From contig CAZVHA010000005.1 of the NCBI GenBank assembly GCA_964626905.1, positions 51,345 through 115,344 on the forward strand: a stretch of 64,000 nt of DNA, in the 5' to 3' direction. The stretch is from an uncultured bacterium. Its GTDB lineage: Bacteria > Chlamydiota > Chlamydiia > Chlamydiales > SM23-39. The notes under the pieces were generated by a model that worked only from the letters and a program-made list of their open reading frames with translations, made no database searches and was not told the DNA's origin. The position numbers and the translations under genes were made by a program. Positions 13,069 through 59,189 of this stretch are shown here, in pieces; the stretch's first letter is position 1; each line of letters begins with the position of its first letter.

Positions 13069-16000
13069 ATGAGTCATTTAGATGCAGCGATTGAGATCTT
13101 GGATCAAGTAGCGGGCAAACCGCAAACGATCTCGGAGCGGGGGCGATTTGCAGTTGAGCTTGCGGCGTTGATGTTGGAAGAGGCGAATCGGACGATGTCC
13201 TCCTCGGAGAAAAAAGAGCAGGAGCAGCTCAGCCGTTTGATGCGCGATCCTCTTGGGAAAGCGTTTACGACTTCGATGACAGATGAGTGTTTTCGGAGCC
13301 ATTCAAATCGGCGCATTGCAGATCAGATGATCTATCTTTTAAACCAATTGGGGGTACCGCAATATCTCGATTTATGGAAGAAGGCGGAGCTATTTGTCTT
13401 CCGTTCATTGAGTCCGCAGCTTGCGGGGATGTTGATCCCTTTTGCAATGCAGGAGTTGCGGAGGCAAACGGCGAAGGTGATTCTTCCTGGGGAGACGGCC
13501 GCTTTGACGAAGCATCTCAAGGAGCGCAAAGCGGAATCTGTGCGGCAAAACATCAACCATTTGGGCGAAGCGATTTTAAGTGAGGCGGAGGCGAAAAAGA
13601 AGCTCCACCTTTATCTAGAGGATTTAAAGAATCCAGATATCGATTACATGTCGGTGAAAATTTCGACGATTTACAGTCAAATTCAGCTGCTCGCTTTTGA
13701 AGAGACTGTCGAGCATATTGCGCAGAAGCTGAAAAAGTTGTATCGGGCGGCGATGGCGATGAGCCCACCCAAATTCATCAATCTGGATATGGAGGAGTAT
13801 CGGGATCTCGATTTGACGGTAAGCAGTTTTAAGAAGGTGTTGGATGAGCCTGAGTTCCATTCATATTCTGCGGGGATCGTGTTGCAAGCGTACCTGCCCG
13901 ATTCGCATCAATTTCAAAAAGAGTTGACCGAGTGGGCGAAAGTGCGGATCAAGCAAGGGGGGGCGCCGATCAAGATTCGGATTGTGAAGGGAGCGAATTT
14001 GGCGATGGAGCAATTTGAGGCATCGCTGAAGGGGTGGCCGCAGGCACCCTACACGCAAAAGGTGGATGTAGATGCGAATTATAAGCGGATGTTGATTTAC
14101 GGGTGTATTGCAGAAAATGCCCGGGCAGTGCGCCTTGGGATTGCAAGTCACAACCTTTTTGATATTGCCTTTGCGATGCTGCTGCGCTCCGAGAACCGGG
14201 TGGAGCCCTATACGGGATTTGAGATGTTGGAGGGGATGGCAGATCCGATTCGGCGAGTGGTGCAGAAGCTAACGGGAGATATGCTCCTCTACTGTCCTGT
14301 GGCCCTGAAGGAAGATTTTCAACATGCGATTGCCTATTTGATTCGGAGACTGGATGAAAATACGGGGCCGGAGAATTTTTTACGGCATGTATTTGGGCTG
14401 AAACCTGGGACAGAGAATTGGGAGAATCAGACAGCGCTCTTTCTTCAGAGCTGCGATGAAATTGAGACTGTTTTTCAAGGGTCTCGGAGGGTCCAAAATA
14501 GACTTCTTGCGCCAATGGCACATGATCCGAGACTCGGATTTGAAAATGAGCCGGACACCGATTTTTCCCTGCCGCAAAACCGCAAGTGGGCGCAGGAGGT
14601 GGTGCGGCACTGGAAAAGCGTCAAAGAGAAGCCAATTCCCCTCGTGATTGGGGGAAAACAGATTTTGGAAAACGAGGAGGGGGTGGGCCGCTGTCCGAAC
14701 AGCACAACGGAGGAATTTTCAAATGTAAAGCCGCTTTACATTTACACCAAAGCCCATAAACATCATATAGATGCGGCTCTAAAATGCGCAAAAGCGCACG
14801 AAAAGGAGTGGGGGGAAACGACGGCGCAATATCGGGGTCAGCTTTTAGCGCAAGTGGCGCAAGGGTTAAGGCAGAGGCGTGGGGAGCTGATAGGTGCGAT
14901 GATGATGGATGGGGGGAAGCTGATCACAGAGGCGGATCCGGAGGTTTCGGAGGCGATCGATTTTGCCCAGTATTATCGGCGCCAATTAGAGAAGATGTTT
15001 CAGATGAAGGACATTGAGTGGGCGCCTAAGGGGACCATTTTAGTGGCATCGCCGTGGAATTTTCCGTGTGCGATTCCGGCTGGGGGGATGTTGGCGGCGT
15101 TGGCAGCGGGGAACTGTGTGATTTTCAAGCCTTCATCGGAGGTTGTGTTGACAGCTTGGCATTTGGTGAATGTGTTTTGGGATGCTGGGGTTCCGAAGGA
15201 GGTGTTGCAATTTGTTCCCTGTTCTGGCGACGGTGCTGGGGGGGATTTGATCCGGGATGAGCGCATCAATGGCGTGATCTTGACAGGGGGAACTGAGACG
15301 GCGAAATCATTTTTGCGGATGCGGCCCAGTTTAGATCTTGCGGCGGAGACGGGTGGGAAGAATGCGATCATTATTACGGGGTTATCGGATCGGGATTTAG
15401 CGATCAAGGATCTTTTGCACTCTGCGTTTAGCAATTCTGGGCAAAAATGTTCAGCGGCGGCGCTTGGGATCCTTGAGGCAGAAATTTATGATGACCCACA
15501 TTTTCTCGATTCTTTGAAGGAAGCGGCGGCGAGCATGAAGGTGGGGCTGAGTTGGGAGTTGGGTGTAAAAGTAGGGCCATTGATTCATCCTCCGCGTGGG
15601 GCATTGAAGAGGGGGCTAACGACTCTGGAAGAGGGGGAGGAGTGGTTACTAGAGCCTCGGCAGAATCCGGATCATCCTTGTCTTTGGAGTCCGGGGATCA
15701 AGCTTGGGGTACGTGCTGGCAGTTTTACGCATATGACTGAGTTATTTGGGCCTGTTTTGGGTCTTATGAGGGCGGACAATTTGGACCATGCGATTGAGCT
15801 TGCGAATCAGGTGCCGTATGGGTTGACATCGGGGTTGCAGAGTTTAGATGAGCGGGAGCAAGGGAAGTGGCTTGATCGGATAGAGGCGGGCAATCTTTAT
15901 ATCAATCGAGGGATCACGGGTGCGATCGTGCGCAGACAGCCGTTTGGGGGGTGCAAGGCGTCGAGTATTGGGAAGGGGGCGAAAGCTGGTGGGCCGAATT

Positions 16001-16653
16001 ATGTTTGTGAATTTATGAAGCCGAAGCAAACGGGCCTTCCACAGGAAAAGTATCCGGTAAACGAGCGGGTCAATCATCTGACAGCCTTTTTAGATCGGAT
16101 GGACTTGACGGCGGAGCAGCTAGGGGTTTGGACAGCGAGCTGTGCGAACTATGCATATTGGTGGAGGCGGATGAAGCAGGACCGGGACCCATCGAAAATT
16201 GTGGGGCAGGACAATTTCTTCCGCTATGTTCCGAGGAAGAGGATTGTACTGCGTCTTGAGCTGCACTCAAATCCATTGGAATTTTTGAAAGTGTGTGCGG
16301 CGGCGCTCACCTGTGGAGCGGGGGTTGAAATCAGTTATCCGATGGAGCTAGAGACGAAGATTCCGTGGCTGAGAGAACTTGCCTCTATTCCAATCGTTGA
16401 AGAAGCGGAGGAACAATTTTTAAAGCGGCTCCATGACGGAAAGATTGGCCGTTTGCGACTATTGGAGCCCGCAAACGAGAAAATCGCAAAAGCGGCGGCA
16501 CACTCTGCGACCTATATTTCGGATGATTTAGTGTTGACGAATGGGCGCCTAGAGCTATTGCATTATCTTCGCGAAGTATCGATCAGTATCGATTATCATC
16601 GTTATGGGAATTTAGGGCTTCGCGAAGGTGAACTGCGCAAGCCGATTCTCTGA
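13069..16653 (+). CDS. putA: Bifunctional proline dehydrogenase / 1-pyrroline-5-carboxylate dehydrogenase PutA
   Basis: 1194 aa. The N-terminal half is a PRODH barrel (IKIRIVKGANL, EMLEGM). The C-terminal half is an ALDH domain (SPWNFP, FKPSSE, ELGGKN-like ETGGKNA, GQKCSA catalytic Cys). Confidence 0.92.
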   Translation: MSHLDAAIEILDQVAGKPQTISERGRFAVELAALMLEEANRTMSSSEKKEQEQLSRLMRDPLGKAFTTSMTDECFRSHSNRRIADQMIYLLNQLGVPQYLDLWKKAELFVFRSLSPQLAGMLIPFAMQELRRQTAKVILPGETAALTKHLKERKAESVRQNINHLGEAILSEAEAKKKLHLYLEDLKNPDIDYMSVKISTIYSQIQLLAFEETVEHIAQKLKKLYRAAMAMSPPKFINLDMEEYRDLDLTVSSFKKVLDEPEFHSYSAGIVLQAYLPDSHQFQKELTEWAKVRIKQGGAPIKIRIVKGANLAMEQFEASLKGWPQAPYTQKVDVDANYKRMLIYGCIAENARAVRLGIASHNLFDIAFAMLLRSENRVEPYTGFEMLEGMADPIRRVVQKLTGDMLLYCPVALKEDFQHAIAYLIRRLDENTGPENFLRHVFGLKPGTENWENQTALFLQSCDEIETVFQGSRRVQNRLLAPMAHDPRLGFENEPDTDFSLPQNRKWAQEVVRHWKSVKEKPIPLVIGGKQILENEEGVGRCPNSTTEEFSNVKPLYIYTKAHKHHIDAALKCAKAHEKEWGETTAQYRGQLLAQVAQGLRQRRGELIGAMMMDGGKLITEADPEVSEAIDFAQYYRRQLEKMFQMKDIEWAPKGTILVASPWNFPCAIPAGGMLAALAAGNCVIFKPSSEVVLTAWHLVNVFWDAGVPKEVLQFVPCSGDGAGGDLIRDERINGVILTGGTETAKSFLRMRPSLDLAAETGGKNAIIITGLSDRDLAIKDLLHSAFSNSGQKCSAAALGILEAEIYDDPHFLDSLKEAAASMKVGLSWELGVKVGPLIHPPRGALKRGLTTLEEGEEWLLEPRQNPDHPCLWSPGIKLGVRAGSFTHMTELFGPVLGLMRADNLDHAIELANQVPYGLTSGLQSLDEREQGKWLDRIEAGNLYINRGITGAIVRRQPFGGCKASSIGKGAKAGGPNYVCEFMKPKQTGLPQEKYPVNERVNHLTAFLDRMDLTAEQLGVWTASCANYAYWWRRMKQDRDPSKIVGQDNFFRYVPRKRIVLRLELHSNPLEFLKVCAAALTCGAGVEISYPMELETKIPWLRELASIPIVEEAEEQFLKRLHDGKIGRLRLLEPANEKIAKAAAHSATYISDDLVLTNGRLELLHYLREVSISIDYHRYGNLGLREGELRKPIL
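14721..14743. repeat. Copy A of the dispersed palindrome (AAATGTAAAGCCGCTTTACATTT), inside putA
   Basis: 23-nt perfect palindrome. The 21-nt core is at 14722-14742 and is read in-frame as NVKPLYI. Confidence 0.95.
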
Positions 16654-16668
16654 GAGGCTCACCCCCCC

Positions 16669-17199
16669 TCATAAACGCTCATGTTCGGGGATTTCATAAA
16701 GGGTGAGATAAAAATCCTGTTCGTCCCTCCCATTCAGACTCCCTTGGAAAATGGCCGTATTTCGAACATAGAGTTGGGCATGATTAAGGAGCCTTTGATC
16801 CGCTCCGTTTTCGACCAAATAACGATAAAATGGGTGGCTTTCCTTTGCGTGGTATCGATTGTAGAGCCATCTTGGGATCAAAGTGATACAACGAATTGGC
16901 AAAGTTGCAAAATCAATCACTGCCGAAACGATGACTGTCAAAATTTTGAGGCCAAATTCTTTTATCTTTAAGGCAGCAATGGCTCCAGGAAAGAAAAGAT
17001 CTTTGCAAAAGTTCCCAATAGTGTCCGTTCTAACAACAACGAACTGCCCCTCCCAGGAACATTTTCTGGCATTGTAACTGCAAAGATTGGCCACACGCGA
17101 ATATTCACCGACACTTTTACACTCTTTGGTAAAGAGCCAAGGCTGGCCAGCCCCTTCTGAAACACGAATAGCGTTAGTGACTCTTAATTCAGCACTCAT
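16669..17199 (-). CDS. Hypothetical membrane protein, 176 aa
   Basis: ATG start and a central hydrophobic segment ILTVIVSAVIDFATLPIRCITLIPRWLY. No enzyme motif recognised. Confidence 0.5.
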   Translation of the reverse strand: MSAELRVTNAIRVSEGAGQPWLFTKECKSVGEYSRVANLCSYNARKCSWEGQFVVVRTDTIGNFCKDLFFPGAIAALKIKEFGLKILTVIVSAVIDFATLPIRCITLIPRWLYNRYHAKESHPFYRYLVENGADQRLLNHAQLYVRNTAIFQGSLNGRDEQDFYLTLYEIPEHERL

Positions 17200-17285
17200 A
17201 CAGCCCCCGATTTTAATCGGTTCAAAGGGTCGCCGATTTTCCCACTAAATGTCAACTTTGCCAGGTTAGTGAAGCGACATACAGA

Positions 17286-17335
17286 ATTCGGTTGTAACCG
17301 AATGAACTGCACGCCATTATTCGGTTACAACCGAA
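17286..17335. repeat. Two copies of a dyad, ATTCGGTT-NN-AACCGAA(T), spaced about 33 nt apart
   Basis: 17286-17303 is a perfect 8+2+8 palindrome. 17320-17335 is a perfect 7+2+7 palindrome of the same sequence. Both lie in the 186-nt gap between two minus-strand genes. Confidence 0.85.
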
Positions 17336-17385
17336 CAAATTGGTATGGAACGGTTATTTGAGATTCAACGCATTATCATTACGCT

Positions 17386-18578: not shown

Positions 18579-18689
18579 TTTTCCCCCACGATCAGTGTAA
18601 AGGAAATACTTTAATCAAAGGTTTGCATTTCGATCGAACATTTTTAGATGTGGACTTATTTTTTCTTAACATGATATAAAAAACACCTT

Positions 18690-22830: not shown

Positions 22831-22857
22831 AATCCGCACTATATAATGCGGGTCATT

Positions 22858-28223: not shown

Positions 28224-29102
28224 CTATACAAATTGTTTGTTAAACTCCCGTTCCAAAAGCCTCAAGGGAGACTTCTCGGGTGTGAGAAGTCCCTTTTGAG
28301 GAATGATCAAGGTTTGCTCCAAAGCGTACTGGCCCTGAAGAGCGGCGTGGGACACCTGGTCTGTAAAGACAGCCCAGCAAGAAAGGGGGGGGAATTCCCA
28401 GCGTTTTTTCGAACACTGCTCTTGGAATGCGCTATTTTCTTTCAAGTAATTATGGAATCGCAGCATGAAACTATCGTATGGGGAGCGCAGCGCCCATTTC
28501 ATTCCCAAAGGGCGCAAGAGCCTGCGCAATATTTTATAATTGGACTGGGGAATCTCTTTGCCAAACTGTTGTAACAGCTCTTCAAAACTATTCGATGTGT
28601 TCCAAACGCGATTTTCTACTGGGTTAATGTTGGTGAAAAAGCGCAAAATACGGGCTCCATGCAAGGGGCGGGTCGGAAATGCATCGACATGGAGAAGGTC
28701 ATTCCTTGCGCGCAAACGGAGGCCCCGCCCTTTTTCTTGGAAGGGGCGAAAACTGGCGTAGTCGTGTCTCCAATATTTTGCATACGGGGACAATAGCGAA
28801 GAGAGGAAAGTAGTGACTCGATTGGAGTAGCTGCGCAAAATACCTTTTAGTTTTTCTGCTTCCAAGGGATCCTTTGTTTCGTGATTGGTGATCCGATCGA
28901 GTCCCGGTTTGTAGGCGATATTTTTTCTCGCCTTCGACGAACCCTGCTTTTGCGCCAGGAGAAATTCGATCTCATTTTTAGGAAAATCAAAGGGGACCTC
29001 TGGGAAAAAAAGGAGATTGCCCTTTTCCAACTCGGTGCAATATTTCAACCTATTTTCTTCTCGCTCCCATTCTCGATCTTGCACAACAATTTTTTGAGTC
29101 AT
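28224..29102 (-). CDS. kdoO: Kdo hydroxylase-like Fe(II)/2-oxoglutarate dioxygenase (KdoO family)
   Basis: 292 aa from the MTQKIVV ATG at 29102, which overlaps the upstream stop (ATGA). LLHVDAFPTRPLHGARILRFFTNINP carries the HxD at nt 28683-28691. The distal His lies in FTDQVSHAALQGQYALEQT. The longer track ORF to 29444 overlaps the upstream gene and was not used. Confidence 0.7.
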   Translation of the reverse strand: MTQKIVVQDREWEREENRLKYCTELEKGNLLFFPEVPFDFPKNEIEFLLAQKQGSSKARKNIAYKPGLDRITNHETKDPLEAEKLKGILRSYSNRVTTFLSSLLSPYAKYWRHDYASFRPFQEKGRGLRLRARNDLLHVDAFPTRPLHGARILRFFTNINPVENRVWNTSNSFEELLQQFGKEIPQSNYKILRRLLRPLGMKWALRSPYDSFMLRFHNYLKENSAFQEQCSKKRWEFPPLSCWAVFTDQVSHAALQGQYALEQTLIIPQKGLLTPEKSPLRLLEREFNKQFV

Positions 29103-29872
29103 ACCTCTCCTTTTAAATATGCGCGGATAATTCTCCAGCGCAAACAGTTTTGTTTTTCGGCCAAAAGCTCTATCGACATCTTCTTTGAAAGCAGCTCTAT
29201 TTCCCGATCGGTGAGTCTGAAAAGGATCGCCCGAGTGCTGCGGGGATTTTGAGTTTTCTGATCGATCTGATGAGCAGCCCTGCGCAATTGCAAATGGCGC
29301 CGAATCAGGCGATGAAACCCGAGCCCCGTCCAAAAAGCCCCCAACAAATAAAACGGGGGAAAAAAAGCGCCTCCTAAAATAGAAAGCAAAAAGGGCCACG
29401 CTTCCCAGGGGCGGCGCAAAATGGGACCGAGGACCCGTCTCCACCTCTTTTCGGAAGTCATATAGGCAAAAAATTCTTCAAAAACGGCCTCGTTGAACCC
29501 ACATCTCGCCCCGTGAACCGCCTCATGCGCCAAAATCTCCTCTCGGCGATAGAGTTTTAGATAACGGCCTCTCTTTTTTAACCCCTCTCGGAGTTGGATA
29601 GAGCTCAACCTTCCCCCCTCAATCCAGGAAGCTGCTCCTTGCCAGGGGGTGAGTCCCCGATTTGAGTAAAAAGCGCAAATGTAAAGCGGCTTTACATTAA
29701 AAAGTTCATAGAGAAACTCGCGCACCCAGTCCCAATGGACCTCAGGAATCCACTCCCCTTCTTTGTACTGATTTTGGGTCTTTGACACTCTTAGGGCGAA
29801 GGCCTCTTCATCCTCGTTGGGCCCGGGAATGAACCCGATTTTATCTAGCTCCAATAAGTCGCGATCTGTCAT
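29099..29872 (-). CDS. Hypothetical membrane-associated HExxH protein (putative zinc metalloprotease-like)
   Basis: 257 aa. HEAVH at nt 29513-29527 is followed by NEAVFEEF and two hydrophobic helices (WPFLLSILGGAFFPPFYLLGAFWTGLGF). The gene contains palindrome copy B. Confidence 0.55.
   Translation of the reverse strand: MTDRDLLELDKIGFIPGPNEDEEAFALRVSKTQNQYKEGEWIPEVHWDWVREFLYELFNVKPLYICAFYSNRGLTPWQGAASWIEGGRLSSIQLREGLKKRGRYLKLYRREEILAHEAVHGARCGFNEAVFEEFFAYMTSEKRWRRVLGPILRRPWEAWPFLLSILGGAFFPPFYLLGAFWTGLGFHRLIRRHLQLRRAAHQIDQKTQNPRSTRAILFRLTDREIELLSKKMSIELLAEKQNCLRWRIIRAYLKGEV
29678..29698. repeat. Copy B of the dispersed palindrome (AATGTAAAGCGGCTTTACATT), inside the HExxH gene
   Basis: 21-nt perfect palindrome. 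It is read on the minus strand in-frame as NVKPLYI. Confidence 0.95.
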
Positions 29873-29971: not shown

Positions 29972-32491
29972 ATGGGCAAAGCCCTAGTTATTGTTGAATC
30001 ACCGGCAAAGATCAAGACGCTGAAAAAATTTTTGGGTCCCAATTTTATTTTTGAGTCATCGATTGGGCACATTCGGGATCTTCCGCAGAAGGAATTTGGG
30101 ATTGATGTCGAGGGTGATTTTGAACCAAAATACGTCACCCTTTCTGATAAGAAAGAGGTGATAAAGAAGCTGCAAGAGGCGGCTAAAAAGGCAGATGTTG
30201 TCTATCTATCTCCCGACCCTGACCGCGAAGGGGAGGCAATCGCGTGGCATATTGCCTCGATTTTGCCTAAGGGGACAAAAATCAAAAGGAGCGCATTTCA
30301 ATCGATCACGAAGGCGGCAGTGGTTGAGGCGCTCGACAATCCGCGCGATATTGATATGGATCTCGTCAATGCCCAGCAGGCGAGGCGCCTTCTTGACAGA
30401 ATCGTCGGCTACAAAATTTCTCCGATTTTGACCCGCAAAGTGAAGAGGGGGCGCAGTGGAACTTCGGCGGGAAGGGTGCAATCGGTGGCTCTCAAACTCG
30501 TCGTTGACCGAGAAAAAGAGATCGATGCATTTGTCCCGGTGGAATATTGGAATCTTGGAGCCCTTCTTTCTCCAAAGCATGAAAAGGTATTTGCGGCGGC
30601 GCTCCACTCTGTTGGGGGATTAAAAGTTGAAAAAGAAAAGGGGAATAAAGAGTGTTTTCTCATTCCCGACAAAAAAACAGCCGTTGGGATTGTCGACAAG
30701 CTTAAAAAAGCAAAATACACCGTCTCCTCGGTTGAGAAGAAGGAGAAGAAGAGACATCCGGTCCCCCCTTTCATCACCTCCACTTTGCAGCAGGAGGCGA
30801 GTCGCCACTATGGTTTTTCTGTATCGCGCACCATGAGCATTGCGCAGGGTCTTTACGAGGGGATTGATGTGGGCCCAGAGGGGACAGAGGGTCTTATCAC
30901 CTACATGCGTACCGACTCGGTGAACATTGCCCCTGAGGCGATTTCGAATGCGAGGAAGTTTATTTTGGAACAATTTGGGAAAGAATATCTCCCCGATCAA
31001 CCCAAAATTTACGCCTCGAAAAAGACAGCCCAAGAGGCACACGAGGGGATTCGCCCTACCAATTTGCATAAAAGTCCGGAGAAGATCCGTTCCTATTTGA
31101 GTCAAGATGAGTATAAGCTCTATTTGCTCATTTGGCGCAGATTTATCGCCTCGCAGATGAATCCGGCCATTTACGACACTGTATCGGCCGATATTGCGAC
31201 AGATCAAGAGATGGTTTTGCGCGCGAGTGGCTCTGTGATCAAGTTCAACGGCTATTTAGCTGCATATGAGGAGAAAAGGGACAGAGGATCTGCCGAAGAG
31301 GAGGATGAGAGCGCCAAAATTTTGCCACCGCTTGAGCCCGATATGCGGCTCGATCTTCACGAAGTGACTTCGACGCAGTCGTTTACGAAACCGCCACCCC
31401 GCTTTACAGAGGCCTCTTTAGTCAAGGAGCTGGAGCGTTTGGGGATTGGGCGTCCATCGACCTATGCTGCGATCATGAATAAGATTCAAAGCAGGGACTA
31501 CACGACTAAGGAAAATCACGCTCTTAAACCGACAGAGCTTGGCAAGGTGATCTGTGCGATGTTGGAGGAGAGTTTTCCGCCGATCATGGACGTGACGTTT
31601 ACAGCCCAGCTGGAGAACCAACTTGAAGAGGTTGCGGAGCACAACAAGAATTGGAAGGAGCTTTTGCGGGCGTTTTGGAAAGATTTTATCCCTCTTGTAG
31701 AAAAGGCGGAAAAAGAGGCGGTTGTACCCAAACTCGAGACTGATATCAACTGCCCAAAATGTAGTTCAAAGCTGCAGAAAATTTGGTCGCGCAACAAATA
31801 TTTCTATGGGTGCTCTCGCTATCCTGACTGCGATTTCACGGCGCCTTTGGAGGCGTTAAAGTTTGACAAGAGCAATTACGACCCCGATTTCAATTGGGAT
31901 CAGCCGTGTCCTCATTGCGGTTCACCTATGACAGTGCGCCACGGAAAATATGGGGCCTTTTTAGGCTGTTCCAAATATCCGGAGTGCAAAGGAATCGTGA
32001 ATATTCCGAAGAAAGGAGAAACGACTTATCGCCCTGAAGATCTCCCGGCGTGTCCTGCCATTGGGTGCGATGGGAGGATGACGGCTCGCAAGTCCCGTTT
32101 TGGGAAAACCTTTTTCTCCTGCTCTAATTTTCCCGACTGCGATGTGATTGTCTCAGAGGTGGGTCAATTGGAGACCAAATACGATGCAAGCCATCCTAAA
32201 ACCGCATATGTGAAAAAGGGCAAGTATGCGAAAAAAGGGAGCAAGAAAAGGAAGATAACTCAGCCGGCCTATAAGACATCAGCTGATCTTGCCAAAATTG
32301 TGGGGGCAAAAGAGGTTAGCCGCCCCGAGGCGACGAAAAAGATTTGGGAGTACATCAAGGCGCACAAGCTGCAAGATCCGATCAACAAAAGAAAAATCAT
32401 CCCCGATGAACTCCTTTCAAAAATCATAGGAAAAGAGCCGATCGATATGATGAAACTCTCCTCATTCTTGTCAAAACATTTGAAAAAATGA
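29972..32491 (+). CDS. topA: DNA topoisomerase I with a C-terminal SWIB/MDM2 domain
   Basis: 839 aa. TOPRIM start (LVIVESPAKIKTL, DPDREGEAIAWH), catalytic region (TYMRTDS), and four Cys-type zinc ribbons. A C-terminal SWIB-like segment follows (LAKIVGAKEVSRPEATKKIWEYIKAHKLQDPINKRKI). Confidence 0.95.
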   Translation: MGKALVIVESPAKIKTLKKFLGPNFIFESSIGHIRDLPQKEFGIDVEGDFEPKYVTLSDKKEVIKKLQEAAKKADVVYLSPDPDREGEAIAWHIASILPKGTKIKRSAFQSITKAAVVEALDNPRDIDMDLVNAQQARRLLDRIVGYKISPILTRKVKRGRSGTSAGRVQSVALKLVVDREKEIDAFVPVEYWNLGALLSPKHEKVFAAALHSVGGLKVEKEKGNKECFLIPDKKTAVGIVDKLKKAKYTVSSVEKKEKKRHPVPPFITSTLQQEASRHYGFSVSRTMSIAQGLYEGIDVGPEGTEGLITYMRTDSVNIAPEAISNARKFILEQFGKEYLPDQPKIYASKKTAQEAHEGIRPTNLHKSPEKIRSYLSQDEYKLYLLIWRRFIASQMNPAIYDTVSADIATDQEMVLRASGSVIKFNGYLAAYEEKRDRGSAEEEDESAKILPPLEPDMRLDLHEVTSTQSFTKPPPRFTEASLVKELERLGIGRPSTYAAIMNKIQSRDYTTKENHALKPTELGKVICAMLEESFPPIMDVTFTAQLENQLEEVAEHNKNWKELLRAFWKDFIPLVEKAEKEAVVPKLETDINCPKCSSKLQKIWSRNKYFYGCSRYPDCDFTAPLEALKFDKSNYDPDFNWDQPCPHCGSPMTVRHGKYGAFLGCSKYPECKGIVNIPKKGETTYRPEDLPACPAIGCDGRMTARKSRFGKTFFSCSNFPDCDVIVSEVGQLETKYDASHPKTAYVKKGKYAKKGSKKRKITQPAYKTSADLAKIVGAKEVSRPEATKKIWEYIKAHKLQDPINKRKIIPDELLSKIIGKEPIDMMKLSSFLSKHLKK

Positions 32492-42546: not shown

Positions 42547-42560
42547 CAGACCATCGCATT

Positions 42561-46977: not shown

Positions 46978-47612
46978 TGCGAATTAAACTCCCGTTTGAT
47001 GAGGTCCATTTCCACTTCAAACACATCAAAGTAAAGAGGACTGTTGATTTTTTTGAGCCTAAAATCGGTGATCAAAAGATGCGGTAAATGGTTTTCTTTT
47101 ACTCCCTCTTCCCTCGGCAAATCTTCAATGAGGGTAAGAATCTCTTTCAAATCAGTTTCATCCATTTGAACGGGGAGGCGCTGATGTTCTTTTACCTCTT
47201 TCATCTCATCCGATGTCTCGATCTTTTCTTCTTTAAAGCTCAATCGATTTTCATTGATAAAGGCGAGCCTCTCCTGAAAAGCGCCCCGCTCCGGTAAGGC
47301 GGGGTGATTCAAAAGTGCATCGCACTGTTTTTTCTCTTTTTGCAAAAGGGGAAACGATTCAATTTTTCGATCGAGAAAATAGGGATCGGCGCCCGAATGG
47401 CGAAAGAGAAAACGCTCTTTTCTCCCCTTTTTTTCCATGGCGAGTCTCTCGATTCTCGCAGCTTTTCCAAAACGAACTTCGAGATCTTGGAGTAGAGCCG
47501 ATTTTTGCATGAGGAAAAAAAGAGCTCCCAAAATGGGGCTCACGAGAAGAATAAAGAAAAAAAGAGGGCGTATTTGAGAGAAAAAGGCTTTTCCACATTT
47601 TTCAAGGAACAT
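46974..47612 (-). CDS. Hypothetical single-pass membrane protein, 212 aa
   Basis: N-terminal TM segment LFFFILLVSPILGALFFLM. It overlaps both neighbours, by 11 nt upstream and by ATGA downstream, so it is probably co-translated in an operon. Confidence 0.45.
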   Translation of the reverse strand: MFLEKCGKAFFSQIRPLFFFILLVSPILGALFFLMQKSALLQDLEVRFGKAARIERLAMEKKGRKERFLFRHSGADPYFLDRKIESFPLLQKEKKQCDALLNHPALPERGAFQERLAFINENRLSFKEEKIETSDEMKEVKEHQRLPVQMDETDLKEILTLIEDLPREEGVKENHLPHLLITDFRLKKINSPLYFDVFEVEMDLIKREFNSQ

Positions 47613-49158
47613 AAGGGGTCCTATTTTTCAGATAAAAAGTTGTCCTATACGATTCATTCAAAACATCCCAACTGATCTCCAAATGGGGATTTACCAAGTC
47701 ATCTCCTTGTCTTAGCATTTCGTGAAAGCGCCTCGCATTCATCACGTTTTTCAAGGAAAACTCGAGCTCCACTCTCTCTAAATAGGGCTCTTCTGCCGAA
47801 GAAAGAGTCGGAAATTGAACGAGCTCGACTCTCAGCTCCCTCACATCCATCGGATCATTTTCGCCTCTCAACGCCTCCAAGAGGGGGTGTGAAGAGAGCC
47901 AAGCGAGCACCTCAACCACTTTGGGCGCTGTGGGGAGATAGGGATACTCTCGATTGTTCTCTTCGACCATTTCAATCCACCGATCGATCCGCTCTTCCAT
48001 GCTCCCTTCCAATCCGATCTCTTTAGGCAAAGAAGGATGAAGCATATGGAGCATTTGTTCTTGCGCCGACTTTTCGAATCGAATCCCCCAAAAGAAAAGG
48101 AGCGCACTTAAAAAAAGGGACGTTCCTAAAAGAGCGAGGGCGATTTTCCCCATCCGAATCCAGTTCTTCTTCGGAAAAAATTCTCCTCTTCGAAGCTGCA
48201 GGGGCTTAAAGAGAATCTGCTCTAAGCATAAACCGAGACTCACCGCATATTTTTGCTCTTCCAAAGACAAGGTCCATTCACCGCGCGCGAAATCGATGAG
48301 AAATTCGGGCAGATGGATAAAGGCATCCGTCCTCCCAGTAAAAAGGAGGGGACACACCTTATTTTTGGTATAGGAATAGTGCACTTTTCCAATCTCTTGT
48401 CGCAAGGAATTGAGTTGCATTGATAAATGGGGATTGAGATGCGGCTTGAAAAGGAGCAGATCGATCTGTTGCGCCGCCCCTTCAATCTCCGTTTTTAAAA
48501 GGACCCTTTTTCGGTCATCGTAAAGAGCTGCTAAAAGGTTTTCTACACCAATTGAAATGGGATGCGCCCGTTTTAATCTTCCATTTTCCATAAAGACGCA
48601 AGTAACCCCTTCAGATCCGATATCGACGATAAACGCGTTGGTTACCTTGGGAAATTTCCATCGGATAAAGTGGCAAAGGGCAGAAGCGGTTGTACTCACG
48701 ACATCGGGATCGATCCCCCATTTGGCAAGCTCATCGAGGTGTTTTCTCATCTCACTTCGCGGAATCGTAAAAATGAGAGCCTCTGATTGCCCTTTTTCAA
48801 CGAGGGGAATTGCGAGAATTTCATTCGGTTTAAAATGGCTGAGCGCCTCTGATTTAAAACTCAAGGTCTCTTCCAGATAACGAAAGCTCCCATTTTTAGT
48901 GCCAGTCGTTCGGACTAAAAAGTCGGTCGCAGCAAGCCCACTGACCACTTTCCCTCTGAAAGTTTGAATGTAAAGCCGCTTTACATTTGGCTGTTTTGGA
49001 GCTGCCAAAGCCTCCGAATGGCCATTTGAATCTATTGCCTCTGTCTCCCCAACCATGGGGAGGGTTTCCATCCAGCGGATGTCGATCTTTTGACCCGACT
49101 TTCGGATGAGGCTAACGCGCAAAAAAGGGAAATCTTTATGGACGCCGAGAATCTGCAT
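47602..49158 (-). CDS. PilM/GspL-like protein: actin-fold cytoplasmic domain, single TM, then a periplasmic domain
   Basis: 518 aa. FIVDIGSEGVTCVFMENGRLKRAHPISIGVENLL resembles PilM/FtsA-type nucleotide-binding strands. There is one TM segment (IALALLGTSLFLSALLFFWGI) about two-thirds along. The gene contains palindrome copy C. Confidence 0.45.
   Translation of the reverse strand: MQILGVHKDFPFLRVSLIRKSGQKIDIRWMETLPMVGETEAIDSNGHSEALAAPKQPNVKRLYIQTFRGKVVSGLAATDFLVRTTGTKNGSFRYLEETLSFKSEALSHFKPNEILAIPLVEKGQSEALIFTIPRSEMRKHLDELAKWGIDPDVVSTTASALCHFIRWKFPKVTNAFIVDIGSEGVTCVFMENGRLKRAHPISIGVENLLAALYDDRKRVLLKTEIEGAAQQIDLLLFKPHLNPHLSMQLNSLRQEIGKVHYSYTKNKVCPLLFTGRTDAFIHLPEFLIDFARGEWTLSLEEQKYAVSLGLCLEQILFKPLQLRRGEFFPKKNWIRMGKIALALLGTSLFLSALLFFWGIRFEKSAQEQMLHMLHPSLPKEIGLEGSMEERIDRWIEMVEENNREYPYLPTAPKVVEVLAWLSSHPLLEALRGENDPMDVRELRVELVQFPTLSSAEEPYLERVELEFSLKNVMNARRFHEMLRQGDDLVNPHLEISWDVLNESYRTTFYLKNRTPYVP
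48967..48987. repeat. Copy C of the dispersed palindrome (AATGTAAAGCCGCTTTACATT), inside the PilM/GspL-like gene
   Basis: 21-nt perfect palindrome. It is read on the minus strand in-frame as NVKRLYI. Confidence 0.95.
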
Positions 49159-50474: not shown

Positions 50475-50475
50475 C

Positions 50476-50745: not shown

Positions 50746-51212
50746 CTTTTTTTGAGCCGCTCTTCAAAAATTTTTTCAAGTTGATCGACATTACGAGGGC
50801 TCTCTTTGATCATTTTGGGCTCACTTTTCCCCTTTTTTTTCTTGAGCCATGCGATGAAAGGCCCATTTTCCAAGACATTTGCACCGGCAGTTTTTGCATG
50901 CATTTTGAGGCCTCGATCGTTGGTCACAACGGTAATTTGCTTTTTCCCCTTGCCAAGTTGGATCTCTTCGACGATGTACTCGTCGGCACTTTGCCCTTTG
51001 GGAGTGTAGGCGACCACCAAGGGGCTTGGATAAGACAACCCGCTCTCTTCGCCTCTTTGGTGAGCCCCATCAAAGACGAGCACCCCCTGCAACTTGCGCG
51101 TGGCAAATTTTTTTTGCAGATATCGGATGACTTTTTCTCTGAGCGCCTGGAGGGACCCCTTGGATTCGACGAGGCTAAAAATCAAATTATAGCCATCGAT
51201 GAGATAGATCAT
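50742..51212 (-). CDS. NYN-domain YacP/Rae1-like ribonuclease
   Basis: 156 aa with MIYLIDGYNLIF, VVFDG, SADEYIVEEI and VVTNDRGL blocks. ATGA overlap with rdgB. Confidence 0.75.
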   Translation of the reverse strand: MIYLIDGYNLIFSLVESKGSLQALREKVIRYLQKKFATRKLQGVLVFDGAHQRGEESGLSYPSPLVVAYTPKGQSADEYIVEEIQLGKGKKQITVVTNDRGLKMHAKTAGANVLENGPFIAWLKKKKGKSEPKMIKESPRNVDQLEKIFEERLKKS

Positions 51213-51826
51213 CCCGTTCCCATCACTGATTCGAGCATAGGGATGATTTTATCGAGGGCTTTGCGCCTATGGGAAATCCGATTTTTCACCGATTCGCCGA
51301 GCTCGGCAAAGGTTTTGCTATAGCCGTGCTTGATGAAGAGGGGGTCATAGCCGAAGCCGCTGCCGCCCCGATCTTTTGTGAGAAGAAGCCCTTCGCAGGT
51401 GCCCTTAGTGCACTTTTTAAGTCCTTCAGGTGAGGCGAGGGCGATTGCGCACTCATAAAAAGCTTGTCTATCGTCGTCCATGAGGTGCTGCATCTCTTCG
51501 AGGAGTTTTTTCCGATTGTCGAGATCGCTTGCATGGCCCCCTGCATAGCGGGCGGAAAAAACACCAGGCGCCCCACCTAAGGCGGGGACAACGAGCCCCG
51601 AATCGTCAGCAAGGACCCAACGACCCAAGGCTTTTGCAGCTGCAACTGCCTTTAATGAGGCATTTTCCTCAAAAGTGCCCCCGGTCTCTTCAGGGGAAAC
51701 ATAATTTGGAAAATCGCAAAGACTCAAAAGGTCGATGCGTGGGTAGGGTTTTAGCATGTTCCGCAGTTCACGCACTTTGTGGACATTGGCACTCGCGATG
51801 ACGAGCTCGACTGGTGAAGATGACAT
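51209..51826 (-). CDS. rdgB: dITP/XTP pyrophosphatase (RdgB/HAM1 family)
   Basis: 205 aa with LVIASANVHKVRE, FEENA..KA, DDSGL.VPALGGAPGVFSARY, FGYDPLF and ISHRRKAL. Confidence 0.9.
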   Translation of the reverse strand: MSSSPVELVIASANVHKVRELRNMLKPYPRIDLLSLCDFPNYVSPEETGGTFEENASLKAVAAAKALGRWVLADDSGLVVPALGGAPGVFSARYAGGHASDLDNRKKLLEEMQHLMDDDRQAFYECAIALASPEGLKKCTKGTCEGLLLTKDRGGSGFGYDPLFIKHGYSKTFAELGESVKNRISHRRKALDKIIPMLESVMGTG

Positions 51827-51890
51827 AGGTACTTCCTTGGTCCTTTCAAGATAGTGGATCTATTTTTTCTGAGCAAAGCAATTAATCGAC

Positions 51891-51911
51891 ATATAAGAGG
51901 AGCTCTTATAT
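51891..51911. promoter_or_regulatory. Perfect 9+3+9 dyad, ATATAAGAG-gag-CTCTTATAT, upstream of the aromatic amino acid transporter gene
   Basis: Read directly. It ends 20 nt before the ATG at 51932, in the divergent rdgB/transporter intergenic region. Confidence 0.4.
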
Positions 51912-51931
51912 TCTAGTACCGCTAAGACGTC

Positions 51932-53170
51932 ATGAGCACACAAACACAAAGTAGAGTAGAGGCGGGCTCCTCTTGGAGGGGCGCCCTTCTGGTGAGCGGG
52001 ACCTGTATTGGCGGGGGGATGCTGGCTATGCCCATTCAAACGGGGGCAGCGGGTTTCTTCATTTCCCTTATTGTCGTCCTCATCAGTTGGGCGTTTATGA
52101 CCTTCACTGGCCTACTTCTCGTCGAGGCCACTTTTTGGCTCAAAAATAACACCCACTTTTCCTCTATGACCGAGGCCCTTTTAGGAAAAACGGGGAAAGT
52201 CATCAGTCTTGTGATCTATTTATTTATCAACTGCGCCTCACTGGTTGCCTACACTTCTGGGGGAGCCCATCTGATCGATCATTGGGCCCAAATGCTCACC
52301 GGCTCCTCTTTGGGATATGCCAATAGCTGTCTTTTTTTTACGCTTCTTTTTGGAACCATTGTCTATTTTGGCGCCTATTTTATTACCAAAATGAACAGCC
52401 TATTTATGATTTTCATGGCGATCGTCTATCTTCTCCTCGTGGGAATGGGGATTTTCAGTATTCAAATGAAAAATCTCCTGTTTCGCCCGGAATGGGTCGC
52501 AGGGCTCCACAGTTTTCCTCTGATTATCGCCGCCTTCAGCTATCAAATGATCGTGCCGTCGCTTTGCTCGATTACCCATTACAACTTGGAGGAATCGAAA
52601 AAATCGATTCTCATTGGCACTGCGATCCCGTGTCTCATTTATCTCATTTGGCTATCCGTGGTGCACGGGATTGTCCCATTTGAGGGAAGTGGAGGGCTCC
52701 ACGAGGCCTATGTAAAAGGGTCACTGATCACTGAGTCTTTGCAAAGATATTCAAAGACCTTTTTCCTCGTAATATTGACCGACCTATTTGCATTTTTAGC
52801 TCTCGTCACTTCCTATTTAGGGCTTTCTCTTGCGCTCTTTGACTTTGTGAAGGATCTCTTCAAAAATGGGAAATACAAGGCGAACTGGGTCACCTTTTTA
52901 TCGCTGGTTCCTTCTCTTCTTCTCGCGATCTTTTTCCCAAGGGCTCTTTTAGACTTTTTAGATATGACTGGGGGGTTCGGCGACGCTCTTTTGTCGGGGC
53001 TGATCCCGATTGCGATGGTTTGGGTAGGGCGTTTTCACAAAAAACAGCCCTCCGAGTACCGCGTTTTTGGGGGGAAATGGTCCCTTGTGACAGCGGGGCT
53101 GTTTGCAATCTTCATTTTCATGATCCAATGGATCAAATTGCAGAAGAACTTGTTCAACAGCCCGCTTTGA
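51932..53170 (+). CDS. Aromatic amino acid permease (HAAAP family, TyrP/Mtr/TnaB-like)
   Basis: 412 aa with 11 TM. N-terminal LLVSGTCIGGGMLAMP signature. Confidence 0.85.
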   Translation: MSTQTQSRVEAGSSWRGALLVSGTCIGGGMLAMPIQTGAAGFFISLIVVLISWAFMTFTGLLLVEATFWLKNNTHFSSMTEALLGKTGKVISLVIYLFINCASLVAYTSGGAHLIDHWAQMLTGSSLGYANSCLFFTLLFGTIVYFGAYFITKMNSLFMIFMAIVYLLLVGMGIFSIQMKNLLFRPEWVAGLHSFPLIIAAFSYQMIVPSLCSITHYNLEESKKSILIGTAIPCLIYLIWLSVVHGIVPFEGSGGLHEAYVKGSLITESLQRYSKTFFLVILTDLFAFLALVTSYLGLSLALFDFVKDLFKNGKYKANWVTFLSLVPSLLLAIFFPRALLDFLDMTGGFGDALLSGLIPIAMVWVGRFHKKQPSEYRVFGGKWSLVTAGLFAIFIFMIQWIKLQKNLFNSPL

Positions 53171-53174
53171 AAAA

Positions 53175-54614: not shown

Positions 54615-54673
54615 CTATAGGCTCCTCGTTAAGGTTTAAAGAAACGGAGGAGCATAGATCTCAAGTCAATTTC

Positions 54674-56857: not shown

Positions 56858-56988
56858 AGTTTCCAAAAAGGGTTCAAGTTCTTCGGGGGGAAGTATAGCT
56901 CTTCGGCAAAATATTGTTCAAATTAAGAACTGTCTTGCAAGAAATGTCTATACAATCCTACCCTTGCCCCTTCACCCTCTTTGCATAA

Positions 56989-59148
56989 ATGAAATGGCTC
57001 TTGATCCTCTTCCCCCTCTCTCTCTTCTGCCAGGCAGAAAGTATTTGTTGCCTTGAGTCGCCCGCCTGTCAACTCTTCAAAGATCTAGAGATCGTGGGGA
57101 AAATCGATCAGGAGATCAAAGACAAACTTCCCGTCGTCATTAACTACCAGCTACAGGGAGGATATTTCGCCATGCCGTCGGCCCGCACATTTGTAGCAGG
57201 GGCTTTGGGATTCGGATTTGCCTATGCTCCCCCCTACCACATCTGGAGCTTGGGATTCCAGTTTTTTGATCACCTTGAGGCGACGGGAAACTATTGGATT
57301 TACAAGGGAGTTTTGGATAGCATTTTTGGCTCATTGGGGTTTGGAGATACGGCCGAAAGAGCCGCCAATCTCAAATGGGTCCTCTTGAGAAGAGAGGATG
57401 GCTTTTCTTTCTTGCCCGACTTTGCCCTTGGATTGAACGATTTTATGGGCACCTGCCGCTTTAAGTCGTTTTATGTAGTCATGACAAAAGAATTTTTGAA
57501 GTGGAATCTGGAGGCGACCCTCGGCTGGGGCTGCGGGCGGATCCAAGGATTTTACGGGGGCGCAGCTTGGAGCCCTTTTCGCTACTGGGATACATTTTTA
57601 AAAAATTTGACTTTGGCCGCTGAATACGATGCAAATAACTACAAAAAGCACACCCACGAACACCCGAGCGGCAGGAGTGTGAAGAGCCGGATCAACGCGG
57701 GGCTCCAATGGACCCTTTGGGATTTGATCCGCTTTTCTGGGAGCACTTTGCGCGGGGAAGCACTCGCAGGGAGCATCGCCCTGAACTACAATTTGGGAAG
57801 TTCCAAAGGATTGCTGCCAAAAACGAATAACCCCCTTCCCTACTGCGCGCCCATCGATACACAGCCCATCGGACTTTTGAGAAATAGACAAGAGCTCGCC
57901 CAAGAGTTTGCCTACGCCTTTCAAGAGCAGGGCTTTGATCTCTATCACCTCTATCTCGTTCCCACAGATTGCGGCCAGGATAGACTTTGGATGAGGGTGG
58001 TCAACGTCCGCTACCGAGAAGAGGATGAGGTGCGCAATCGGATCCAATATGTCCTCGCCGCCCTCACCCCATCCAATATTTCTGGCGTCACCGTTGTGAG
58101 CGAAGCGGAAGGGATCCCCATCCAAGAGTACCGGTTTCGCCGGGAAGATTTGAGGCGCTATGCAGAAGGGAAATTGGGAGAGGACGAGTTTCGGGTGATC
58201 TCCCCGCCAAATGAGGTCTCAAATACGCCTGATAAATATGACGCAGCGCTCTTGTACCGCAGAAAAAAAGCGATTTGGATTCTCACACTTCGCCCCTGGT
58301 TTCGCTCCTTCTTAGGATCGAGCCGTGGCAAATTCAAATACGAAGTGGGCCTTGCCCTAAATCCCGAAGGATATCTCTTCGATGAGATCTACTACAATAT
58401 CTGCGGTACTTATACTGCGAAATCAAGCGCACAGGATATCGAGGCGCAAGATTTTATCAACCCCTCTCGCCTGATCAATGTCCGCACCGATTCCATTCTC
58501 TACAACCAATCCAATACCTGGCATCTCGAATCGGCCTTTTTCCAAAAGAGTTGGAACATGAGTCAAGGCTGGTTTTCAAGACTTGCCGCCGGATATTTTG
58601 AGATGGCCTACGGGGGATTTGCCCTTGAAACTCTCTATTACCCCGTCGACGTGAATTGGGCCGTCGGCTTTTCTGCGGCCGCCCTCTTTAAAAGAAGTTA
58701 CTACGGCTTAGGCTTCCAACAAAAGGTGCGAAAACTCACCGACGATGGGCCGATCTATGTTCCCTACACCGGATTGCAATACTTTGCCGATTTTTACTAC
58801 CAGTACCGGCCACTTGCGCTCGACTTTAAATTGAGCGCTGGACAATTTCTCGCAAGGGACAAAGGGATTCGGGTCGAAGGGGGGCGCACATTTGCCAGCG
58901 GGCTCAGAGTCGGACTCTGGTATACCCTGACAAATGCGGGAGACCAGGTCAATGGGAGCCGCTATTATGACAAGGGATTTTCAATCACCATGCCTCTCGA
59001 TCTATTCCTCAGAAAATCGAGCCGTACGCGGATCGGCTACGCGATGTCTGCATGGCTCAGAGATTGCGGAGCCATTGGCTCAACAGGCAAACAGCTCTAT
59101 CCGACCCTTTTCTGGTCTCGCTACAACACAAAGCCGGTATTTTATTGA
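56989..59148 (+). CDS. YjbH-family outer membrane/exopolysaccharide-associated protein
   Basis: 719 aa with a signal peptide. FAMPSAR near the N-terminus. The C-terminal blocks GYFEMAYGGFALETLYYPVDVNWAVG, SAGQFLARDKG and GFSITMPLDLFL...SRTRIGY...LRDCG match the E. coli YjbH pattern as I remember it. Confidence 0.8.
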   Translation: MKWLLILFPLSLFCQAESICCLESPACQLFKDLEIVGKIDQEIKDKLPVVINYQLQGGYFAMPSARTFVAGALGFGFAYAPPYHIWSLGFQFFDHLEATGNYWIYKGVLDSIFGSLGFGDTAERAANLKWVLLRREDGFSFLPDFALGLNDFMGTCRFKSFYVVMTKEFLKWNLEATLGWGCGRIQGFYGGAAWSPFRYWDTFLKNLTLAAEYDANNYKKHTHEHPSGRSVKSRINAGLQWTLWDLIRFSGSTLRGEALAGSIALNYNLGSSKGLLPKTNNPLPYCAPIDTQPIGLLRNRQELAQEFAYAFQEQGFDLYHLYLVPTDCGQDRLWMRVVNVRYREEDEVRNRIQYVLAALTPSNISGVTVVSEAEGIPIQEYRFRREDLRRYAEGKLGEDEFRVISPPNEVSNTPDKYDAALLYRRKKAIWILTLRPWFRSFLGSSRGKFKYEVGLALNPEGYLFDEIYYNICGTYTAKSSAQDIEAQDFINPSRLINVRTDSILYNQSNTWHLESAFFQKSWNMSQGWFSRLAAGYFEMAYGGFALETLYYPVDVNWAVGFSAAALFKRSYYGLGFQQKVRKLTDDGPIYVPYTGLQYFADFYYQYRPLALDFKLSAGQFLARDKGIRVEGGRTFASGLRVGLWYTLTNAGDQVNGSRYYDKGFSITMPLDLFLRKSSRTRIGYAMSAWLRDCGAIGSTGKQLYPTLFWSRYNTKPVFY

Positions 59149-59158
59149 TTGATCCACC

Positions 59159-59189
59159 ACTCAAATGTAAAGCCGCTTTACATTTGAGT
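59159..59189. terminator. Copy D of the dispersed palindrome, extended to 31 nt (ACTCAAATGTAAAGCCGCTTTACATTTGAGT). Candidate bidirectional terminator.
   Basis: Perfect 15+1+15 palindrome lying exactly between convergent genes ending at 59148 (+) and 59178 (-). It contains the last codons CAA ATG TAA of the minus-strand gene. No clear U-tract. Confidence 0.5.

Follow-up and report, generated by a model that had tools for sequence, protein, structure and literature searches.

Sites of the palindrome in the window

We analysed a stretch of 64,000 nucleotides from an uncultured bacterium of the Chlamydiota (assembly GCA_964626905.1, contig CAZVHA010000005.1, positions 51,345 to 115,344 of the forward strand), here called the window, and a short palindrome, AATGTAAAGCSGCTTTACATT, that is dispersed over it. 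The window encodes a TopA-SWIB fusion and its genes match loci of metagenome-assembled genomes (MAGs) of Chlamydiae at amino-acid identities of up to about 90%; it is chlamydial DNA. The first site (AATGTAAAGCCGCTTTACATT, 14722..14742) occupies codons 552-558 (NVKPLYI) of putA (13069..16653, plus strand), whose product contains the Pro_dh and Aldedh domains of PutA. The second site (29678..29698) occupies codons 59-65, again NVKPLYI, of an open reading frame (ORF) on the minus strand (29099..29872); its product of 257 amino acids contains HEAVH, a HExxH motif, and a Pfam search of it returned no family. This copy has the opposite orientation, with its centre G on the plus strand, and sits 274 nt upstream of the divergent topA-SWIB gene (29972..32491). 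The third site (48967..48987) occupies codons 58-64 (NVKRLYI) of an ORF for 518 amino acids (47602..49158, minus strand), for which a Pfam search returned no family either; its label 'PilM/GspL-like', taken from an earlier note on this DNA, is unconfirmed. The fourth site (59159..59189, core 59164-59184) lies between the convergent genes of a YjbH-like protein (56989..59148, plus strand) and of an SSF (sodium:solute symporter) protein (59178..60533, minus strand). There the flanks lengthen the palindrome to 15+1+15 nt, and the stop codon of the symporter gene (TAA, 59178-59180) is the TAA of the motif. The sites as such carry no strand designation.

An exact search found the 21-mer at exactly these four places, the same ones that the earlier note had listed, while 0 copies are expected; 100 dinucleotide shuffles of the window gave 0 matches, and the claim that the repetition is far beyond chance thus stands. 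No further match appeared in the window when up to three mismatches were allowed, and a solo 10-nt half-site occurs in it 0 times. Among the 14-20-mers repeated at least three times in the window the palindrome is the sole family, one trivial 14-mer aside, and the only 9+1+9 palindrome that recurs in 0.9 Mb is ATGTAAAGC-N-GCTTTACAT. The flanks of the copies are unrelated, in agreement with the proposal that the motif is short and autonomous and not part of a larger duplication. The description as a perfect palindrome of 21 nt does not hold to the letter: the 21-mer is built as 10+1+10, and because its length is odd the centre base cannot be self-complementary; this base sets the orientation of the element. 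Furthermore, the conserved unit is the inner 19 nt, ATGTAAAGC-N-GCTTTACAT, the outer A/T being only about 63% conserved.

Two metagenome contigs that are 100% identical to the window extend the stretch to 78.6 kb. The extension contains two more sites: on the left, at a distance of 5.5 kb from the window, a fifth exact copy, and on the right, at 4.8 kb, a copy with two mismatches that lies 9 nt past the uvrB stop codon. The gaps between the resulting six sites (20.2, 15.0, 19.3, 10.2 and 9.7 kb) are more even than expected from random placement (coefficient of variation 0.33, P=0.016; minimum gap P=0.0035).

Also in this genome, to the left of window position 1 and about 5.5 kb from it (L339, 3902-3980; the L numbers denote the loci used for comparison), we observed a composite element of about 85 nt, which consists, in this order, of a perfect palindrome, the hairpin GGGGnCCCCGAAAACGCnTCGTTTTTGGGG, a U-rich run and a hybrid copy TTGTATTGC-S-GCTTTACAT. 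It is present in at least eight genomes; further copies are at L025 7142-7231, L046 7660-7738, L055 2409-2488, L082 2523-2598, L095 19-99, L111 1955-2033 and L116 5382-5463, and the insert in L025 is flanked by a 32-nt direct duplication. Rfam returned no family at gathering score for seven loci with this element. It resembles either a small terminator-like element with the palindrome as its target or an att-type junction.

Distribution in Chlamydiae

A scan of one genome per species with the query ATGTAAAGCNGCTTTACAT gave at least 116 blocks of 8 kb with 121 sites in 46 assemblies; the counts of host sites in this section are those among the matches listed. At least 43 of the 46 assemblies are chlamydial, being labelled Chlamydiae, Chlamydiia, Parachlamydiales, Simkaniaceae, Anoxychlamydiales or 'Verrucomicrobia', or being MAGs with matching genes. 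The palindrome is widespread in environmental Chlamydiae of several orders. Its sequence is invariant across them, apart from the centre base (C/G at 89 sites, A/T at 32), and the conservation of the flanks fades gradually outwards (A at -1 in 63%, A at -2 in 46%).

The placement of the sites follows the ends of genes. As many as 46 of 117 host sites are intergenic, compared to about 6.6 expected for random positions in the same loci; sites overall are 7-9-fold enriched between genes. These 46 sites lie between tandem (24), convergent (12) and divergent (10) gene pairs, and 22 of the 24 tandem ones are closer to the 3' end of the upstream gene. The remaining 71 sites are inside called ORFs, 58 of them well inside ORFs of at least 150 codons. 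The motif also closes genes with its own TAA, as it does for the symporter gene of the window: this is the case for an ORF of at least 100 codons at 18 of the 121 host sites. The earlier note had pointed out that the +1 register carries TAA on both strands and ends a gene at the fourth copy, which is correct. Consequently, only two registers are open to copies inside genes, and well inside long ORFs they are used 33 times (NVKxLYI) and 25 times (CKAALH). The three intragenic copies of the window do encode NVKPLYI, NVKPLYI and NVKRLYI in one register, as had been noted; however, given this usage elsewhere, the shared register is not significant and can be put down to chance.

The genes beside the sites encode an epimerase, KdsB, an Rsm22-like methyltransferase, major facilitator superfamily (MFS) transporters, a heptosyltransferase, RuvA and UDG, or are rpoD, uvrB and putA. 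They are unrelated housekeeping genes without a shared functional theme, that is, the sites do not mark a regulon. This bears on the possibility that the palindrome is an operator at which a global transcription factor, of the kind of LacI/cre, TyrR, CRP or NtcA, would control its regulon, partly by intragenic roadblock. The consensus boxes of these families are TGTAAA-N6-TTTACA (TyrR), TGTAAGCGCTTACA (cre), AAATGTGA-N6-TCACATTT (CRP, in short TGTGA-N6-TCACA) and TGTA-N8-TACA (NtcA), and the palindrome resembles them in its half-site letters, with the outer TGTAAA...TTTACA, even AAATGT...ACATTT, and in its two-fold symmetry. Two loci (L148 and L196) carry two tandem palindromes 25 nt apart upstream of a gene, and the location of the second window site upstream of topA would also suit an operator. 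However, the spacing of the palindrome (N5/N9) is one base off every such family and is strictly kept, and its inner GC-N-GC is conserved. TGTAAA-N5-TTTACA occurs 133 times in host DNA, the N6 form twice and the N4 and N7 forms never, which rejects the TyrR box, an element found upstream of genes for aromatic amino acids. The cre/LacI operator is even with a central CG (WTGNAANCGNWNNCW) and stands at or near the promoters of a catabolic regulon, whereas the centre of the palindrome is an odd GC-N-GC of length 1. The position of nearly all tandem sites at the end of the upstream gene, the sites between convergent genes, the evenness of the gaps and the absence of -10 elements at the distance that a promoter requires do not suit an operator either. 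The likeness to a cre/LacI-like operator suggested in the earlier note thus fails on spacing, on the centre, on the avoidance of promoter positions and on the lack of a common function of the neighbours, and we regard an operator as quite improbable. A promoter of the sigma-70 type, with TTTACA as its -35 element on both strands, was likewise rejected: -10 matches at the proper spacing (16-18 bp downstream) are no better than at random positions.

Two observations on individual loci may be added. Rare variants with a two-base centre, TGTAAAGC-NN-GCTTTACA, are found at L004 3243, L033 1675, L186 1781 and L248 3354, and both host examples come from one MAG. In one chlamydial MAG (L093, 5383-7084) the palindrome lies 16 nt past the stop codon of rpoD, the gene of sigma-66; that it stands there with its -35-like TTTACA on both strands, and that the phages described below carry a copy of sigma region 4, may be a coincidence.

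Origin of the copies

The site in putA is kept at the same codons in four species, namely in the window and in L021, L089 and L102. The 19-mer is identical in all four, the free centre base aside; the next 179 nt are 66-73% identical, with 37-47% at third codon positions. Since these loci were found by exact match, the comparison demonstrates retention at the same codons and not a rate. The earlier note had proposed to look at the codons of orthologues in order to tell a DNA element from a constraint on the protein, and the same 19 nt at the same codons of putA in three other species favour the former; selection would then act on the DNA itself. The positions of other copies are conserved as well. 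The site in the HExxH ORF is shared by two species, an orthologue in L030 carrying the motif at the same codons, and the site in the 518-amino-acid ORF is present in three, as L016 and L004 keep the motif while the surrounding protein is only 27-32% identical and has many indels. At the gene end that corresponds to site 4, L103 has the motif directly against the stop codon, L005 has a degenerate version and L098 has none.

Pairs of orthologues with and without the motif reveal how copies come and go. In five pairs (L036/L050, L018/L001, L019/L011, L054/L063 and L088/L012) the codon alignment has no gap: for example, CAT GTA AAG CCG CTT TAC ATT stands opposite CAT GTA AAA CCC CAA TCG ATT, and TGT AAA GCC GCT TTA CAT stands opposite ATG GCA AAA GCC TTG CAG in the respective motif-free orthologue. 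Because the palindrome overlays homologous codons without gaps, it is gained and lost by substitution and not by insertion. In addition, 125 sites were compared at four boundary offsets, and at none of these are direct repeats of 2-5 nt in excess, hence there is no target duplication. The gapless alignments and the missing target-site duplication together rule out an insertion element, and with it the in-frame insertion after the manner of Rickettsia palindromic elements (RPE) that the earlier note had considered.

One would argue that a miniature mobile palindromic element, of the kind of RPE, of repetitive extragenic palindromes (REP) with their REP-associated tyrosine transposases (RAYT) or of miniature inverted-repeat transposable elements (MITE), could still insert 21 nt in frame or leave such a footprint. 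The heptapeptide of PutA falls in a 6-residue gap relative to the solved structures of the distant P5C (pyrroline-5-carboxylate) dehydrogenases, although the length of this loop also varies among chlamydial orthologues. The dominance of perfect copies and the composite element, with its one flanking duplication, speak for mobility too. Against this, the flanks of the palindrome fade and show no sharp ends, which together with the lack of target-site duplication excludes a MITE; one and the same sequence is shared by different chlamydial orders, whereas a given REP is confined to its species or genus; and no transposase or RAYT was noticed among the annotated neighbours. We therefore consider a mobile element highly unlikely.

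Copies in phages

The exact 19-mer is also present in at least 120 stretches of the viral database IMG/VR, and a complete scan for the variant GCNGT added 104 further viral stretches. The phage contigs (L117-L338) belong to one family; many are 34-43 kb long, and their GC content is 0.32-0.47. They share genes for a P22-like portal, a major head protein, a large terminase, collagen-like tail proteins and RecT/RecE-like proteins, and in the representative examined the large terminase contains an intein. Among the matches listed, 91 of 122 exact phage sites are intergenic, compared to about 8% expected. Typically the site lies 4-15 nt past a stop codon and the ribosome binding site (RBS) of the next gene follows directly behind; a near-complete phage genome of 38 kb has four sites with at most one mismatch each. 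Most often a phage site separates two paralogous tail-like genes in tandem (22 pairs). Where a site would follow the capsid-region gene, related phages have ordinary hairpins instead.

To our knowledge, only microviruses are known to infect Chlamydiae. The shared motif, and a phage sigma-70 region-4 protein whose best named relatives are chlamydial SigA/RpoD, suggest that Chlamydiae may be the hosts of these P22-like phages. The GroES of the phages is 41-43% identical to the GroES of the window. The portal family as a whole comprises 2438 metagenome proteins, and the two relatives that were examined have no or almost no motif. In L446, a contig of 379 kb, positions 1-6400 are a phage region that has a GC content of about 40% and contains a related portal gene; this region abuts acidobacterial (Sulfotelmatobacter-like) housekeeping genes (6400-22160) with a GC mismatch of 15 points, and there is a single motif copy with two mismatches. 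It is probably a chimeric assembly or a motif-less relative, the alternative being a prophage in an unexpected host.

In some phages sequences like group I introns split the capsid-region gene, and the palindrome forms one of the intron hairpins. Such stretches are L206 2052-2335 and 3163-3426, L156 1-250, L211 900-1300, L221 4750-5100 and L247 7220-7482; at the Rfam gathering threshold only the intron of L247, an intron that does not include the motif, is called.

The phages encode a small serine recombinase, which raises the possibility that the palindrome is a site of specific recombination, att-like or a cassette boundary, for a recombinase of the host or the phage. The frequent position between paralogous tail-like genes would agree with it, as would the resemblance of the hybrid copies to att junctions and the structure of L098, where three extra genes stand at the site-4 junction and motif copies are found on both sides of the first of them. 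However, the positions are conserved between distant species, and one prophage-like junction that was examined is without the motif. Gene order is kept across 20% of the site junctions versus 28% of other junctions of at least 40 nt, so as breakpoints of synteny the sites show only a weak, non-significant trend. Additionally, serine recombinases make a staggered cut of 2 nt, with which a one-base centre is incompatible, and tyrosine recombinases need a longer spacer. Thus a recombination site has very little to recommend it.

Reading of the palindrome as DNA or RNA

The geometry of the palindrome is strict. Its centre is one base long in 272 sites and two bases long in four, and it is never of length 0 or 3-7. 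Mismatches in the half-sites cluster at positions 0 and 5-7, and TGTA is almost invariant. The viral scan with the inner 5 nt left free returned mostly chance matches; its one useful result was the variant GCGGA, which appeared 10 times. Such strict geometry and base-specific contacts would fit a two-fold symmetric reader on duplex DNA.

The same sites could, on the other hand, act in the transcript, as an RNA hairpin AUGUAAAG-CNG-CUUUACAU that a host RNA-binding protein or RNase reads as a mark of mRNA 3' ends or processing sites and that the phages, which must use the expression signals of the host, have taken over. The closeness of the sites to stop codons and their location between cistrons argue for this, most clearly in the phages with their short distances to the preceding stop and the RBS behind, and so do the ordinary hairpins at the equivalent capsid-region position of related phages and the copies within intron-like sequences. 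However, a stem change that G.U pairing would tolerate (C-to-T in ACA) was found in only 2 stretches, versus 104 for the tolerated position and at least 120 for the consensus. The asymmetric variant GCNGT, which gives different loops in the two transcripts, has no preference relative to gene direction, with 24:24 at tandem and 20:19 at genic sites; a first look at the G.U strand bias had given 4/4, before the full scan gave these figures. As this position adjoins the loop, what the strand test chiefly argues against is that the loop sequence is recognised; hence the addition of the mid-stem variant and of the count of centre lengths. Nor is there a bias in the centre base that phage tandem sites have on the sense strand (G 29, C 27, A 8, T 6). 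The loop length is fixed, though a tetraloop would fold equally well. Finally, 10 host sites lie between divergent genes and over half are within ORFs, for instance in the middle of putA (among the matches listed). Taken together, a signal in RNA seems distinctly unlikely to us, and the palindrome is very probably some kind of protein site on duplex DNA, as far as its patterns of variation can tell.

An intrinsic (Rho-independent) terminator is a separate matter. The hairpin of the 21-mer is weak (-5.6 kcal/mol) and no U-tract or T-run follows the palindrome, a purine-rich RBS being found there in the phages; this rules out such a terminator. Ordinary terminator-like hairpins often adjoin the palindrome.

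Other features of the window

Another palindrome, ATATAAGAGGAGCTCTTATAT, of the form 9+3+9 and unrelated to the dispersed one, is located at 51891-51911 in the divergent intergenic region between the ORFs 51209..51826 (minus strand) and 51932..53170 (plus strand), and it looks like an ordinary local operator. The GC skew changes from +0.27 to -0.13 near 16.6 kb (within 12000-20000 of the window), where the coding strand changes; this is probably an effect of gene strand and not a landmark of replication. The hemB gene (ALAD) is at 60703-61695.

Discussion

The palindrome described here is, in our judgement, a dispersed short recognition palindrome with a putative reader, and we found no earlier description of it. 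Its sequence was in none of the papers searched, searches of the literature on chlamydial tailed phages, on conserved chlamydial palindromes, on the EUO operator and on the GreA of Chlamydiae gave nothing usable, and records of cultured phages and plasmids contained no real match. Rfam returned no family at gathering score for any window site or for nine phage loci. The view of the earlier note that no described family matches the palindrome is thereby borne out. By their defining tests it is not an RPE, MITE, REP, terminator, cre, TyrR box, parS or promoter. In its letters it comes nearest to the boxes of TyrR, cre, CRP and NtcA, in its placement to REPs and the bacterial interspersed mosaic elements (BIME) that they form, and in its behaviour to uptake sequences and to sites of the parS, NBS, SBS and matS type.

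The REP/BIME systems with RAYT also have palindromic units at gene ends and between convergent genes, about one per 10-20 kb, and other small elements insert into REPs, which can be compared with the composite element reported here. REPs are, however, extragenic, imperfect and spread by copying, while more than half of the host sites among the matches listed (71 of 117) are in ORFs and the palindrome is invariant across orders and born by substitution. RPEs are palindromic DNA that is read through in frame within unrelated proteins, and in this the likeness is real; but they are insertions of 100-150 bp with conserved internal sequence, whereas the palindrome has 19-21 nt, unrelated flanks and no change of length relative to orthologues.

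The strongest rival to the explanation that we favour is an uptake or 'identity' signal under molecular drive, comparable to the uptake signal sequences (USS) of Pasteurellaceae and the DNA uptake sequences (DUS) of Neisseriaceae, or a mark against nucleases of the Chi type; a DNA receptor or some other machine for self-recognition would favour DNA with the palindrome, recombination would accumulate the copies and phages would gain by mimicking the mark. The signal in RNA comes next, then the operator, and then the mobile element and the recombination site. Like the palindrome, USS and DUS, including the inverted pairs that double as terminators, are one sequence conserved throughout a clade and made in place by substitution without indels. 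They too stand in frame in tolerant protein segments, which for the palindrome holds in both open registers, are concentrated just past the ends of genes (the palindrome between convergent genes as well), are evenly spread and occur mostly as perfect copies, which in the case of the palindrome outnumber near-copies. Phage copies at a density like that of the host would follow from such a signal as well, and Chlamydia is naturally transformable. On the other side, USS and DUS are mostly single oriented copies of 9-12 nt at about one per kb and are mostly not palindromic, whereas the palindrome is always 9+1+9, measures 19-21 nt, which is far longer than known uptake sequences or Chi sites, and occurs about once per 15 kb, that is, at a density about 15 times lower (six sites in 78.6 kb). 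Halves on their own hardly occur: there is none in the window, and elsewhere there are few, mostly decayed or hybrid copies. An uptake signal would leave the obligate palindrome and the low density unexplained. Such a signal, which the earlier note had raised in the form of paired uptake-sequence terminators, is a live alternative but not a likely one.

The other group with similar behaviour consists of parS, NBS, SBS and matS, the sites of ParB, Noc, SlmA and MatP. These are short and nearly perfect palindromes, mostly in or beside unrelated genes, with positions conserved between species and tens to hundreds of copies per genome, and they act at the level of the chromosome; the centre of matS is odd, too. 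They differ from the palindrome in their unrelated sequences, and the palindrome has a strong preference for gene 3' ends and is present in a phage family. The palindrome is not parS itself, which has a different sequence and clusters near the origin, while the palindrome is dispersed over many contigs; no canonical parS (16 bp, TGTTNCACGTGNAACA-like) was seen in the loci examined.

The explanation that we favour, tentatively and with less than even confidence, is that the palindrome may be the target of a dimeric DNA-binding protein that is conserved in environmental Chlamydiae and acts at the level of the chromosome. The putative two-fold symmetric protein would bind the palindrome as duplex DNA. 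The site would be made and lost by point substitution and would be kept at roughly one copy per 10-20 kb, on the scale of the chromosome rather than of single genes, and copies would be tolerated where they do least harm: just past stop codons, between convergent genes and in permissive in-frame stretches of proteins. Its role would likely be architectural or 'punctuating': where transcription units end, it would serve as domain boundary, anchor or insulator, comparable in role to parS/NBS/SBS sites or to BIME. The P22-like phages carry the site at similar density, presumably since the same protein would handle their DNA in the same cells.

Several points weigh against this explanation. The protein dimer as the reader, its action and the infection of Chlamydiae by the phages are what we infer from sequence patterns, and a strict RNA-binding protein could give several of the same patterns. 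A phage does not obviously need an architectural site of its host, and a self or uptake signal, or a role linked to transcription, would account for the phage copies more directly. Because most loci were gathered by exact match, perfect copies appear more dominant than they are. The placement figures rest on crude gene calls, namely on the longest ORFs. The test for even spacing was made post hoc on one region of 78.6 kb with six sites.

We also looked for the binding protein. Genes common to the phages and the host loci were only those for GroES, the sigma-70 region-4 protein, a protein with double HTH_17 and collagen repeats, and among the proteins of 125 phage clusters there were Cro/HTH_3, HTH_17, a resolvase and others, none of them tied to the sites; no single candidate stood out. 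The window itself encodes, at 54674-56866 on the minus strand, a GreA homologue of 730 amino acids in which the Gre domains make up residues 576-714 only; a precomputed annotation assigns its N-terminal part to the HTH_GRAD family, and it is a DNA-binding transcription factor typical of Chlamydiae. This homologue is a possible candidate for the reader of the palindrome.

A bolder reading, which we hold to be doubtful, is that the palindrome could be a phylum-wide mark of 'own DNA' or of architecture, read at regular distances along the chromosome by a protein specific to Chlamydiae and copied by a hitherto unrecognised family of phages of about 40 kb of the P22-like kind that infect environmental Chlamydiae, so that phage DNA would be handled or spared like the DNA of the host. 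If true, these would be the first tailed phages of Chlamydiae, together with a new kind of DNA signal that mimics the host.

For the annotation of chlamydial genomes, the motif accounts for odd conserved heptapeptides (NVKxLYI, CKAALH) and for ATGTAA stop contexts, and such peptides should not be taken for protein motifs. As a 19-mer present in hundreds of uncultured phage contigs, it is a marker for linking phages to their hosts and may bring tailed phages of Chlamydiae to light. The Chlamydiae live as obligate intracellular bacteria and divide without FtsZ, and little is known about the organisation, segregation and condensation of their chromosome. An invariant and evenly spaced site that is found across their orders points to a sequence-specific DNA-binding system, and it offers a direct handle for finding this system.

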